This document shows positions 1-7,182 of a stretch of DNA of 35,599 bases, in pieces. Source of the DNA: a virus. The DNA is taken from UHGV virus genome UHGV-0130975; one strand, given 5' to 3'. Both the position numbers and the translations under genes were made by a program. Position 1 is the stretch's first letter. Every line of letters starts with the position of its first letter. A model generated the notes under the pieces. The model searched no databases. It worked only from the letters and a program-made list of their open reading frames with translations, and had not been told where the DNA came from.

Positions 1-1293
1 AAAGGTGTTTCCTGTAAATATAGTTGAACGGACACCATCAACAACAGCACCGGAAGCTGTCGCATCACGCCCAGATGACACAAAGTTACCAATGATAGAT
101 CCGTACGCAATGCCGTTAAGTAACCATGCGCTACCAGAAACTGCATCAAAAACAGAGTTGGATATAAATACCTGGTATCCAGCAAATTGGTCCAGCGCTG
201 TTGGCGATACCAGAGTAACTTTAGTCTGTACTGCATAATCTCCCGCAAAAAAGGTGCAGAAAGTGATACTAAGGTCTGCTGTATCCCAAACATCTATAGG
301 TGAGTTTGAGCTAAAGCACATCAAAAATTTTGGAGACTCGCTAATGAAATTTACTGTGTTAAGGTCTGATCTGCCTTCAAATCCGCTCGACCAACGTTCA
401 CATCTAAAGAAGTTAACATAGTGATAGTTGTTCATTAAAGTTCTTGAGTTGTAAAAGTACACTCTGTCGAAATCTAAGTTCTGGACATGTCGGCAAACCA
501 TCCAGTTAATTACTGTATCAGATGAAATGATCACATCCCTAAAGATGCCACCCTGTTTCCACTGACTAGCAGCCGGGCCAGACCCTGTAAGGGTAAACAT
601 AGTGAAGGTTGAATCAGAACCTAGATATTTAATCTCTGGATTTTTTGCATTACCTATAATTTCATACCTGGCAGGCAACTCAATATCACGAGTAGCCATG
701 GCATAAACACCAGATCCTCTGAGATAAATTTTCTTAGCACCTGATGCAAACGCCTTCTTAAATGCTAAAGAGTTATCAGTAATACCTCCGTCGTCTTTTC
801 CTCCGAAATCCTCAAGGAACACAAAATCATCAAGCTTATCCTGAACAGTTCTGTATACGGCACCATCAACAACAGATGGTAATCCATACTTATACTTTAC
901 TGTTTCAGGGAATGCCCCGCTTGCAAACTCTCTCTCTAGCTCCTGCCGGAACTGGTCAGGGTCATACTTCAGCACATTAGGAAAATAGAACTGCTGCGCA
1001 CCGTACGTATCATAAACAGCCATCGAATGACCTTGCACAGTTACGAATTTGGCAATCTGTCCGTTATATACTGGGTAACCAGCAGCGTTAATGATGATTG
1101 GTTGCGAAACAGGAACGTGAGAACCGTCTTCGTTCTCTACATAAACCTGAATCTGGTTTTCAGGATTTACCGGGTCAGTGTCAATTTTTCCGATATAAAT
1201 TTTGCCATTGGCAACCGCTTTAAAAGAACGCGCCATAGTGAAGAGTTGCGAAGGCATGCTTACTACAACATTGGCATTTATTGAATCTGTCAT
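1..1293 (-). CDS. Tailspike protein, 5' portion (N-terminal 431 codons; gene continues past the window start)
   Basis: Minus-strand frame opens at ATG 1293-1291 (GGAG about 8 nt upstream) and runs to position 1 with no in-frame stop (checked codon by codon). Translation [60 protein letters not shown]... matches, from memory, the conserved head-binding domain of P22/Sf6/HK620-type tailspikes; sequence after about residue 115 diverges (receptor-binding domain). Missing from the ORF track because no stop lies inside the window. Confidence 0.9.
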
Positions 1294-1425
1294 TTAATTT
1301 GCTCCAGATACAAGGAATCGCCGCAGCATGGCTACGGTTGGTGTTTGTTGCATACCGAAATGGTACGATTGTTGATTTGTACAGTAGGTTTTACGATGCC
1401 ATTCCACCCATTTGGTGAGGCATTG

Positions 1426-1683
1426 ATGATGTACAGCAAATACGATGAGGCGCAGTTCCACTTGAGGCTTACGCACGAGTTGCACGCTAAGATTAAGCAA
1501 CGTGCAAAAATGAATAACAGGTCTATCAATTCCGAAATTGTGGCTACGATGGAAGAATCACTCTCCAAACCATCACCTGTAAGCGGGTATCGTGATGAAG
1601 AAGAGAGGCTGGCCTCATTAATCTCGGAACGAGTAAAAGAAGTTGTGGCTGATATCCTTAGAAAAGAAAAAACCCGCGATTAA
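1426..1683 (+). CDS. mnt: Mnt-like ribbon-helix-helix repressor (85 aa)
   Basis: ATG 1426 with GGTGAGG 7 nt upstream. N-terminal RHH motif (FHLRLTHELHAKIKQRAKMNNRSINSEIV) and C-terminal SKPSPVSGYRDEEERLA segment recalled as P22 Mnt-like. The longer ORF-track start (1345) lacks an RBS. Confidence 0.75.
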   Translation: MMYSKYDEAQFHLRLTHELHAKIKQRAKMNNRSINSEIVATMEESLSKPSPVSGYRDEEERLASLISERVKEVVADILRKEKTRD

Positions 1684-1692
1684 GCGGGTTTA
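1660..1692 (-). terminator. Rho-independent terminator ending the minus-strand antirepressor operon (also a weak terminator for mnt on the plus strand)
   Basis: Hairpin AACCCGC / GCGGGTT (1671-1690) with loop containing the mnt stop codon; on the minus strand it is followed by a U-rich tract (plus-strand A-run 1660-1670). Confidence 0.6.
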
Positions 1693-1697
1693 GTTGG

Positions 1698-1919
1698 TTA
1701 GTTATCAAAAAGTCCGTACGTTTCTTCTTCTTCAGGTGTAAGGGGAAGAATCTCTACTCTATCTATAGATACCTTTTCAATGTACCCATGAGGTCTACTT
1801 AAAATTAAAGCTCTCTCATGCCACAGAACTCCAAGAATGTGATACCTTCCAGCATCGCCTTTTACCCTGGCTCTTCCTTTGATTCTTGGCGGCATAATGC
1901 CATATTTTTTCTTTGCCAT
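1698..1919 (-). CDS. Hypothetical protein (73 aa), last gene of the antirepressor operon
   Basis: ORF-track frame; its ATG overlaps the stop of the upstream antirepressor-like gene (TAATG), suggesting translational coupling. No recognisable motif. Confidence 0.4.
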   Translation of the reverse strand: MAKKKYGIMPPRIKGRARVKGDAGRYHILGVLWHERALILSRPHGYIEKVSIDRVEILPLTPEEEETYGLFDN

Positions 1920-3717: not shown

Positions 3718-4038
3718 ATGAGCAAGTTCCCTAGTCATGAAATGGATAGGTTCAATATCAGGCTTCCTGCAGGAATGCGGGATGCTATAGCTGAACGAGC
3801 CAAACGTAACGGCAGATCAATGAACTCAGAGATTGTTCAGATACTGGAAGATGCCTTGAATGCAGAAAATACACTCGGGGAAATAGCAGATAAAATCAAC
3901 AGCGTCTCGGTTCCGCTAAATGTTGATGCGCTAGTTCAACTTCAAGCCCAGGTTATCGCCATGCAAAAAGAAATACAGGAAAAGTTCAGAGAGCAGAACG
4001 AAAAGTTGAGAGAACTGCTAAACAAAAAACCCACCTGA
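3718..4038 (+). CDS. Ribbon-helix-helix (Arc/Mnt family) repressor with C-terminal coiled coil (106 aa)
   Basis: N-terminal FNIRLPAGMRDAIAERAKRNGRSMNSEIVQILEDAL is a classic Arc/MetJ RHH signature; C-terminus is heptad-like (LVQLQAQVIAMQKEIQEKFREQNEKLRELL). Transcribed divergently from arc-ant, the position P22 mnt occupies. Confidence 0.7.
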   Translation: MSKFPSHEMDRFNIRLPAGMRDAIAERAKRNGRSMNSEIVQILEDALNAENTLGEIADKINSVSVPLNVDALVQLQAQVIAMQKEIQEKFREQNEKLRELLNKKPT

Positions 4039-4063
4039 AGGTGGGTTAATTTTTGCCTTTTTT
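4027..4063 (+). terminator. Rho-independent terminator after the 106-aa RHH gene
   Basis: Hairpin AAAACCCACC-TGAA-GGTGGGTT (4027-4047) followed by AATTTTTGCCTTTTTT. Confidence 0.7.
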
Positions 4064-5055: not shown

Positions 5056-7182
5056 TTACTCCTGTGCCATTCCGCTAAGCGATGCCACAATTCCAGCCCT
5101 TGCTAAACGCTGGAACTCTTCGTTTCCTAGTGCCTCGCGTATTGCTTTTACGGCGGCCTTATTTGCCATAAATCTGCGTTCCGCCGCCGCTAATGCTTCT
5201 TTGCTTCCGCCTGCTCTTACTGCTTTAGTTGCTTCCTGAACTGCTTTCTCTATCGCATACCGACCACTACGTGTGGTGGCAATTTTAGATACAGCGCCTT
5301 TTAACCCAGCGCCAACTAAAGCACCTGCGGCAGCGCCTGCAATGCCTCCTCCAGCGCCACCAACAATGGCACCTGATGTTGAATTGGCAATTGCATTTAA
5401 CACTGTTGATGTGACGTTGGATAAACCAGCATCCAGATCGCGTAGTACATTGGCAGTTCTACCTGTTCTTTCAATATACTGCTGAGGTTTCACTGCTGCT
5501 CTTGCAAGAGTGCCATATGCATCAGCAATTCTTCCAAGCTCTGAGGAATATCGGCTAATGGCTTTTACATTTTGTGGAGTCAGTATCTCTGCGATATGGT
5601 TAATTCCTGCTGCATCAGCTTTGCCACCACGTACACCATGCGAGATAGCATCTTGCAACATTGATGAAATAGCAGGAACACGCTCTGATTCTGGCAGCGC
5701 GCGGATCATAGAATGGAATCCAGCAGGACCATTAAGACCTTTAGCTGACGATGATTGAAGGGATTTTACTCCATTCGTAATCAGTGCATCTGTTGCCAAA
5801 TCACGCCCGAAAACAGACTCTGCACTCTCTTGTGCTGATAACCTCGCTTTAGACAGATCATTAGCTTTCTGCCAGTCATCAAGAAATCCGCCGTTTTCCG
5901 CCATTGTGCGCATATCATCAGTAATTGCCCGGCGTATTTCCCCTGCTCTCCTTGCCGCATTTGCCTCTCCGCTACGCTTATATTTTTGCTCCGCATCAGC
6001 AAATTTCGCTCTCCATGCTTTCATGCCATCAAATGTTACTCCACCTTGATTGTTTGCCTGAACAAACTGTTTCATTTCAGGAGTAAGCGGTATGCCAGCA
6101 GATCGCTCTGCCTGAATAACGGCATTACCATTTAGCATTCTTGCTTTTTGATTTGGCATTGTTGACCGCACGTCATCCCATGCCGCGCGCTCGGCATCCT
6201 TCATCTGATCAAGATTTTGAAGAATCCTTTGTTTTATAGCCGCACTTTTTTCTGATGCCGTTCCAGATGTGGCCCCAAATTCATCAAGGTTTCGACTTAA
6301 CTTTGATGATATTTCGTTAAATGCTGCCTGATGGGCGTCCTGAACAATTCCAGGTGTTGATGCCAATGCGCCTTCGGCTTGTGCAATTCCACGACTTCCA
6401 GATCGCATTCCTGGTGTTAATGCGTTTATATCAATTCCAGCAGACTCAGCCGCTTTTGCTACATCTTCGGACACATTAGCGGCCTGACTGGCAATTGACT
6501 GACGCCCAGCACCTGACTTTGCCATCCTAGAAACATCATTAGCAGAATTCAGTGCTGCACCACCAAGAGCCTGTGAAACCCTTGGCGCAATAACGCGCCC
6601 GACACCTGAAAGAACGCCTTGAGCACCAATATTGATACCACCGTTAATGGCAGCATTTTGTGCAAAATCACCCTCCTGATTTGCAGCATCAGCAAGAGAA
6701 CCTGCAATCATGTTTCCTGCGGAACCGATGTCTCCTGCGAGCTTTGCTGGCGCTCCAGCAACTTTTGCCGCTGTGCCAATTGGCAGGAGATACCCACCAA
6801 TTGTTTCACCGGCTTGCGCCCAAGGGTCTGTCGGTCGATCGACAGGGCGATAAACATCATCCAAAACCTTGGGGCCACCAAGCCCCTGGCTGATTGCATT
6901 AATCAGACTTGCGCCACCCTGCAATACGTCAAATGGTATGTTTACCAGACCACGACCAGCCTGTTCTGCAATTTGCCCTGCACTTTGACCACCAGTGAGC
7001 CAATCGCCAGCTTGTTGCATCAATGATGGTTCTTCCCGTGTTGGTGCATTATTGTCCTGATTAACTGTTTGTTGCTGAACAGCCTGACCAGCAAAATACT
7101 CATCAATGGCGGTGCCAATATCTTCCGTGCTCGTACCATCAGGGAAGGTAAATGTCTTACCGTTTGCAGTTACTTTCATCAT
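5056..7182 (-). CDS. DNA ejection (injection) protein, P22 gp16-like (708 aa)
   Basis: Last gene of the late operon in the P22 order 7-20-16; Gly/Ala-rich with a C-terminal [17 protein letters not shown] hydrophobic segment typical of ejection proteins. Confidence 0.8.

Follow-up and report, generated by a model that had tools for sequence, protein, structure and literature searches.

The tailspike gene at the end of the window

The viral genome UHGV-0130975 was analyzed over a stretch of 35,599 nucleotides, which is designated the window in the following, with respect to the tailspike gene that occupies its first 1,293 positions. The minus strand of positions 1–1293 contains 431 stop-free codons, as deduced from a translation of the reverse complement, and the frame starts with an ATG at 1293–1291. 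A Shine-Dalgarno-like GGAG (1302–1305, minus strand), which was found by direct reading of the sequence, is located 8 nt 5' of this ATG. The frame runs off the end of the sequence at codon 431 of an expected number of approximately 587. The gene is therefore 3'-truncated, as had been recognized in an initial annotation that was based on the sequence alone and did not state the strand. An 80-residue peptide cited there corresponds to residues 114–193 of the tailspike. The expected length is given by the full-length proteins of three E. coli isolates (P0001, P0122, P0123), which comprise 587 residues and are 98.1–98.6% identical to the window protein over the 431 residues. A prophage protein from Salmonella enterica (P0121) is 94% identical. 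Isolates whose genes reach 98–99% or 94% identity include GCA_012035675.1 and GCA_021116775.1 from E. coli, and GCA_024134425.1 and GCA_025550415.1 from Salmonella.

An independent metagenome contig (L018; ENA, ERZ28627763; 19,955 bp) matches the window over 17 kb save one gap, and its tailspike is identical to that of the window over all 1,293 nt (L018 15900–17206). This contig ends within the tailspike, just 14 nt past window position 1. Other metagenome contigs that are identical at a 708-residue gp16-like protein likewise end inside the tailspike. Because L018 with its identical tailspike stops 14 nt further on, the truncation is, as far as visible, the end of an assembly and not a feature of the gene.

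A P22-type head-binding domain is joined to a TSP3-type body

Residues 1–115 (window 949–1293, minus strand) constitute the head-binding domain, which mediates attachment to the virion and extends to the conserved LKYDPDQF(R) junction. Pfam family PF09008 (Head_binding) covers residues 4–114 with an E-value of 1.7e-65 and a score of 218.8 bits, compared to a cut-off of 24, and is the sole Pfam domain found. In the PDB, the N-terminus matches Sf6 gp14 (7SG7; E-value 3.4e-71) and the P22 tailspike (2XC1, 1LKT; E-values 1e-45 to 1e-50); the similarity is confined to approximately residues 1–184 for Sf6 and 1–126 for P22. On the DNA level, 31 phage records, among them HK620, CUS-3, Sf6 and epsilon34, match positions 949–1293 only, with identities of 83–94.5%. 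For HK620, CUS-3 and Sf6, the identity is 88–94.5% over codons 1–115 and stops exactly at 949/950. Past the shared junction the sequences part: HK620 continues with RAIIESPEGAG and Sf6 with GPDLIEQLAQS, and the window differs from both. A drop in GC content at the junction, from some 44% to some 40%, is too small to be informative as a compositional signature.

Given that the N-terminal 115 residues are so similar to HK620, Sf6 and CUS-3, one might suspect a known tailspike of the P22 family (P22, Sf6 or HK620 type) along the entire length, the reported divergence of the second part being only apparent. This explanation, which the initial annotation had named as the contrary outcome, was ruled out by the PDB search and by BLASTP comparisons with full-length HK620 gp9 (710 residues) and Sf6 gp14 (623 residues). 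The similarity is restricted to residues 1–171 and 1–182, respectively, and all alignments beyond have E-values above 1. The full-length P22 chains match residues 2–126 only, in agreement with the earlier remark that the sequence following the head-binding domain does not resemble the P22 endorhamnosidase. No significant alignment with the receptor modules of P22, HK620 and Sf6 was thus obtained beyond residues ~126, 171 and 182.

Instead, the second part of the protein belongs to the family of tailspike TSP3 (orf212) from the myovirus CBA120 (Kuttervirus, Ackermannviridae). Residues 116–431 (window 1–948, minus strand) comprise a neck helix and the first approximately 270 residues of a right-handed β-helix module of the TSP3 type, which combines receptor binding and glycosidase function. 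In a phmmer search against the PDB, residues 115–431 matched residues 158–474 of TSP3 (5W6F/6NW9) with an E-value of 1.8e-158. The corresponding BLAST alignment of residues 116–431 with TSP3 residues 159–474 is ungapped and comprises 316 residues with an identity of 73.4%. When the 431-residue fragment was modeled with AlphaFold, the predicted local distance difference test (pLDDT) value was about 90 at residues 160–431, and a Foldseek search with this model identified 5W6F/6NW9 as top PDB matches (E-value 2.5e-36), followed by chains of Sf6 and P22 that were found via the N-terminal domain. The prediction of a different β-helix glycanase module was therefore correct. According to a published scheme, receptor-binding proteins (RBPs) share a subtype at ≥30% identity and ≥60% coverage (PMC10408124). 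The window protein falls into the 'O77' subtype with 73.4% identity over 316 residues. Given a module length of ~472 residues, the coverage amounts to about 67%; the remainder of the module is off the sequence.

The alignment allows one to transfer the active site of TSP3, whose residue numbers equal those of the window protein plus 43. In TSP3, the active site is an inter-subunit cleft; mutagenesis has shown that Glu362 and Asp426 are required and that Asp383 is not, His334 forms a hydrogen bond with Glu362, and six aromatic residues line the cleft (PMC6517402). Glu319 (337–339, minus strand; ctc on the plus strand, i.e. gag) corresponds to the catalytic Glu362, and Asp383 (145–147, minus strand; atc on the plus strand, i.e. 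gat) to the catalytic Asp426, which is supplied by the neighboring subunit. Asp340 (274–276, minus strand) corresponds to the non-essential cleft residue Asp383 of TSP3, and His291 (421–423, minus strand) to His334. Five of the six cleft aromatics (Phe322, Tyr324, Tyr335, Trp344, Phe370, Phe392 in TSP3) are identical. The sixth, Phe322, is replaced by a Tyr; the allele from an O176 host introduced below contains a Ser at this position. The stacked Cys ladder of TSP3 is conserved as well. Among the residues at the trimer axis, some differ: His367 and Arg233 of TSP3 are a Leu and a Tyr in the window protein.

Both proteins have the neck helix and the β-helix body in common, and the C-terminal ...YYDSTLGLPIWWNSVSGTWK... 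motif of TSP3 is also present in the full-length relative P0001. In contrast, the anchors are entirely different: TSP3 possesses the Kuttervirus head domains D1/D2 (PF18668), which dock into the branched TSP complex, instead of PF09008, and the identity over residues 1–115 is 15%. The tailspike of the window thus has its body in common with TSP3, without being an orthologue of orf212 as a whole. With P22 gp9, Sf6 gp14, HK620 gp9 and the CUS-3 tailspike, it has the reverse relationship. All of them share the head-binding domain, the LKYDPDQF junction and the place of the tailspike gene, which is the last one and comes after the gp16/immI region, whereas no sequence relationship exists between the receptor modules. 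Homology with TSP3 would place the active site between subunits as in Sf6, and not within one subunit as in P22 and HK620 (PMC6517402). The protein is, with practical certainty, a two-module chimera of a P22-type head-binding domain and a TSP3-type body. As the similarity begins inside the neck helix of TSP3 (residues 155–168), the exchanged unit consists of neck plus body.

The distal half of the helix is divergent

A sliding-window analysis and a half-by-half identity matrix revealed that the receptor module is not uniformly conserved. Four allele groups were compared: the window type, the type represented by the prophages of E. coli strains ST3 and PSS-11 and by P0003 and P0005, TSP3, and the Enterobacter type P0004. 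In the neck and the N-terminal half of the helix, which extends to approximately residue 340 and includes the catalytic rungs, the identity between groups is 80–96%, and 67–73% for Enterobacter P0004. In the C-terminal half it is 50–61%. The divergent half starts at approximately residue 341 in the window (residues ~341–431; 1–273, minus strand), and residues 341–431 show 37–63% identity with TSP3 and the other prophage alleles. The C-half of the window allele is 57–61% identical to TSP3 (about 57%) and the ST3/PSS-11 group. Even a sensitive blastn search of 5,426 complete E. coli genomes yielded no nucleotide match to window positions 1–228. This suggests a mosaic boundary within the receptor module, which may have arisen by sub-module exchange or by fast divergence of the distal half.

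Three residues of this half deserve mention. Gln374 (172–174) takes the place of a Pro that is kept in most relatives (AGYPV), and Phe404 (82–84) that of a Leu. Both also occur in the isolate protein P0122 and are therefore real alleles. Leu367 (193–195), which is a Pro in close relatives, was seen in the window and in L018 only.

Relatives of the tailspike and mobility of the module

The prophages that carry a window-type tailspike are P22-like and occupy three chromosomal sites: one by dacD, one on the yfdC side with the integrase directly after the tailspike, and one by hut/bio in Salmonella. They are located at least 50 kb away from the rfb cluster or at unrelated sites. Because the surrounding prophage DNA differs among these carriers, the tailspike gene is mobile as a cassette.

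The closest group of different alleles comprises tailspikes from prophages of O77-group and O176 strains (WP_001544389.1 of ST3, WP_338389255.1 of PSS-11; cluster P0002/P0126/P0127), which have the same architecture and a length of 587–588 residues. Compared to the window protein, they are 81% identical overall, with 96–97% in the head-binding domain and 76–78% over the receptor part; within the latter, values are 87–88% for the N-half and 59–60% for the C-half.

TSP3-type bodies also occur on other anchors, namely in Kuttervirus (TSP3), in lytic phages of approximately 41 kb (Henuyfy11N gp22, BUCT789) and in Enterobacter prophage proteins. A search of 50,697 phage records found the TSP3-type module in no P22-like phage. 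In a catalogue of E. coli RBP subtypes from 2023, the O77 subtype has only two entries, CBA120 RBP3 and the Koutsourovirus phiKDA1. An exchange of receptor bodies between the anchors of P22-like phages and those of Ackermannviridae or T7-like phages has been described for the Det7 TSP and P22, and for the endosialidases of CUS-3 and K1F (PMC8432352). These cases represent the same evolutionary process with a different module family. A description of the pairing of a Lederbergvirus anchor with a TSP3 body was not found in the literature.

The module is associated with two related O-antigen gene clusters

The receptor of CBA120 TSP3 offers a first indication of the substrate. According to PMC10408124, which cites Plattner 2019, TSP3 cleaves the O77 antigen, and CBA120 infects O77 (PMC7506556). 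The same two publications cite that TSP3 does not degrade the O157 antigen.

A survey of the hosts was based on the 5,426 complete E. coli genomes. The cross-tabulation made use of a chimeric query, which consisted of the tailspike body and 500 nt of wzy, and of the size of the resulting union. Prophage tailspikes with a TSP3-type module were present in 16 genomes. The O17/O44/O73/O77/O106-type cluster was found in 94 genomes including ST3, 13 of which carry the module. The wzx/wzy genes of the O176 type were found in eight genomes including PSS-11 (one of the eight is named O176:H45), and three of these carry the module. The union of tailspike-bearing and O77-group genomes amounts to 97; therefore, 13 of the 16 carriers belong to the O77 group and the other three are the O176 strains. 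The module was absent from the remaining 5,324 complete E. coli genomes. The hypergeometric P-value of this association is 7e-29, and 4e-11 if only the six distinct alleles are counted. The clusters of the O77 group and of O176 have the same gene order, and their Wzx and Wzy proteins are homologous (45–48% identity).

Three closed genomes in the survey (NZ_CP063153.1, NZ_CP061339.1 and NZ_CP061337.1, from strains M7424, M00057 and M11957) belong to an outbreak-related cluster of Shiga-toxigenic E. coli (STEC) O77g:H18 (PMC13188871). Each contains a second, shorter match to the tailspike-plus-wzy query, possibly a tailspike remnant. In PSS-11, the O176 wzy is annotated as frameshifted (L004 22485–23815), and an ISAs1 element lies at the start of the O-antigen cluster. 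This lysogen may no longer polymerize the antigen that is presumably targeted by the tailspike of its own prophage.

The backbone of the O77 group is 6)-Man-(a1-2)-Man-(a1-2)-Man-(b1-3)-GlcNAc-(a1, composed of mannose (Man) and N-acetylglucosamine (GlcNAc), with glucose side branches that originate from prophage gtr genes; O176 is grouped with it on the basis of one transferase that adds two mannoses (PMC7685785). In ST3 and PSS-11, genes of the gtrA/gtrB/gtrC type for O-antigen glucosylation follow directly after the tailspike (L001 2494–5256; L005 8526–11267). P22-like phages that are O-antigen-specific and seroconverting classically show this order, which also fits the biology of the O77 group (PMC7685785). 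Three prophages with the window-type allele (L002, L020, L028) have no gtr genes after the tailspike.

Because all 16 genomes with the module carry the wzy of the O77 group or of O176, the receptor is most likely an O-antigen of the Man-Man-Man-HexNAc type (HexNAc, N-acetylhexosamine), that is O17/O44/O73/O77/O106, O176 or an equivalent Salmonella antigen. The 94% identical Salmonella protein fits a receptor that is shared between genera. Salmonella O:6,14 probably shares the O77 backbone. The initial annotation had expected the module to specify the O-antigen or capsule receptor; a role in O-antigen specificity is supported by the complete association in 16 of 16 genomes, observed for the sister allele group.

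Proposed function of the tailspike and alternative explanations

Taken together, the gene very probably codes for a chimeric tailspike with a mannose-rich O-antigen as likely substrate, and belongs to a temperate phage or prophage of the P22-like (Lederbergvirus) type whose host is Escherichia or Salmonella. The head-binding domain would plug the trimeric spike into the tail hub. By homology with TSP3, three chains would trimerize in such a manner that the active sites lie in the clefts where subunits meet. The O-polysaccharide would then be cleaved by an acid/base pair that consists of Glu319 from one chain and Asp383 from the next, and the conserved cleft aromatics would hold the sugar chain. 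Binding and cutting of the O-antigen would bring the virion to the outer membrane. It is highly probable that the tailspike functions as an O-antigen glycosidase; a substrate of the O77-group/O176 type is favored with moderate confidence.

Several observations weigh against this interpretation. The association with the serogroups was measured on the sister allele group of ST3/PSS-11 and is only extended to the window allele, which was absent from the 5,426 complete E. coli genomes and whose C-half shows the low identity to TSP3 and to the sister group reported above. The structural study of TSP3 observed halos on O157:H7 mutants that are devoid of O-antigen and left the substrate open (PMC6517402), and the assignment of TSP3 to O77 goes back to a later paper, as cited in PMC10408124. 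Furthermore, the gene is incomplete, and the last approximately 156 residues, which would comprise the rest of the helix and a C-terminal β-prism, are deduced from relatives only.

It is conceivable, but rather unlikely, that the window allele encodes a TSP3-type enzyme whose divergent C-half sub-module recognizes a polysaccharide other than those of the O77 group and O176, for example a different O-antigen, exclusively a glucosylated variant, or an antigen of Salmonella or Enterobacter. In favor of this, one can name the low conservation of residues 341–431, the finding that none of the 94 O77-group and none of the eight O176 genomes contains the window allele, and the cleft position of TSP3 Phe322, which is a Tyr here and a Ser in the O176-host allele. 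However, divergence of the C-half does not follow the serogroup elsewhere: it is 56% identical between TSP3 and the ST3-type allele and 90% identical between the alleles of O77-group and O176 hosts. Moreover, the catalytic and most of the cleft residues are unchanged. A more specific and quite speculative variant is that the window allele represents a third specificity, in which the distal sub-module binds the O77-group backbone after glucosylation by rival, gtr-carrying prophages (O17/O44/O73/O106 or the Salmonella equivalent). If true, this would be a counter-move to prophage seroconversion, accomplished with an exchange that is limited to the receptor module's distal half. Still less probable is a target different from the O-antigen repeat, such as the lipopolysaccharide core or a capsule. 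This idea relies on the halos on O157:H7 strains without O157 antigen, due to which core sugars were left as a possible substrate (PMC6517402). Against it, PMC10408124 and PMC7506556 cite later work in which TSP3 was assigned to O77 and did not degrade the O157 antigen, and both the all-or-none association with two related O-antigen clusters and the adjacent gtr genes point to the O-antigen.

A different question is whether the gene is intact in the source organism. If it were disrupted or a remnant, for example due to an insertion sequence (IS), the prophage would be unable to make adsorbing virions. The sequence stops within the gene, as does the independent contig L018 14 nt further on. A contig from a third sample (L027, 954 bp) contains the last 130 codons of the window-type allele; ahead of the tailspike match lie 135 nt from the end of an IS66-family element (L027 1–135), which is multi-copy in E. 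coli. This indicates that the tailspike gene of the L027 population is interrupted by an IS at about nt 1370. A further case is strain G4/9, where an IS3 splits a related tailspike. However, the ends of the window and of L018 contain no IS sequence, and the junction in L027 falls 63–77 nt beyond the ends of L018 and the window and stems from a different sample. In addition, the 431 codons are uninterrupted and 98–99% identical to the intact 587-residue genes of isolates, and metagenome contigs commonly end where strains differ. A disruption of the gene is accordingly regarded as improbable.

Genomic neighborhood of the tailspike gene

The window is a segment of a P22-like genome, as deduced from the order of open reading frames (ORFs) and the Pfam labels of the matching contig L018 (portal, coat, Tail-4, gp10, gp7, gp20, gp16, Arc, Bro-N/P22_AR_C, tailspike). 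Starting from the tailspike, the genes comprise an immI-like region with Arc-family genes and two antirepressor-like genes, the ejection genes gp16/gp20/gp7, and tail genes of the gp26/gp10/gp4 type; then follow coat, scaffold, portal, terminase, lysis, regulatory and recombination genes. The DNA is mosaic and resembles CUS-3, HK620 and prophages of E. coli with identities of 94–97%; CUS-3 and P22-like prophages of E. coli reach 96–97% in parts. Neither tRNA genes nor host DNA were found in the window. The gp16-type DNA-transfer protein (708 residues; 5056–7182, minus strand) is a rare variant, whose exact sequence occurs on seven contigs of 10–50 kb, all of them metagenomic.

Two small genes accompany the tailspike. 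An Arc/HicB-like gene of 95 codons (1396–1683, plus strand) is oriented divergently to it; the gene was identified by means of Pfam, with HicB being a weak match, and has an equivalent place in L018 and in nine of ten other loci. Together with an ORF of 73 codons (1698–1919, minus strand), it forms the constant neighborhood of the tailspike cassette. The product of this ORF is very common in an exact-copy look-up (4,119 index blocks) and occurs beside at least eight different tailspike bodies. Elsewhere, this ORF and the 95-codon gene adjoin tailspikes of 618–901 residues with other bodies (pectate-lyase-like, GDSL lipase, peptidase S74 and others). The pair illustrates the replacement of a cassette at a fixed site.

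A hairpin with flanking T/A runs (1670–1691, minus strand), which was identified in a consensus scan only and resembles a terminator, is located between convergent genes upstream of the tailspike. A second strong hairpin with T/A flanks is found at 4028–4047; both are terminator-like on both strands and separate convergent genes in the immI-like region. In the interval between the nearer hairpin (1670–1691) and the tailspike start, the scan detected no sigma-70-like promoter, and the counts were not above those of shuffled controls. As in P22, antiterminated late transcription is presumably required for expression of the tailspike.

Implications

These findings do not change a concept, as the exchange of tailspike modules among P22-like phages, T7-like phages and Ackermannviridae is already well documented. 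Likewise, the TSP3-type module is not novel: for its family, a crystal structure has been solved and a substrate reported (E. coli O77), and near-identical proteins are public under generic names. What is added is small and consists of the pairing of a Lederbergvirus anchor with a TSP3 body, a clean association with serogroups, and the divergent distal half of the module. Tailspike bodies are the main determinant of the O-serogroup that is infected by P22-like phages, and they serve the prediction of host range, the typing of hosts from prophages, and the design of diagnostic and engineered phages. The O77 group includes the sequence type 69 (ST69) lineage and the STEC O77g:H18 strains of the 2025 outbreak of hemolytic uremic syndrome in France (PMC13188871). 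Because the group includes ST69 and outbreak STEC, a catalogue of phage proteins that recognize it has some practical value.

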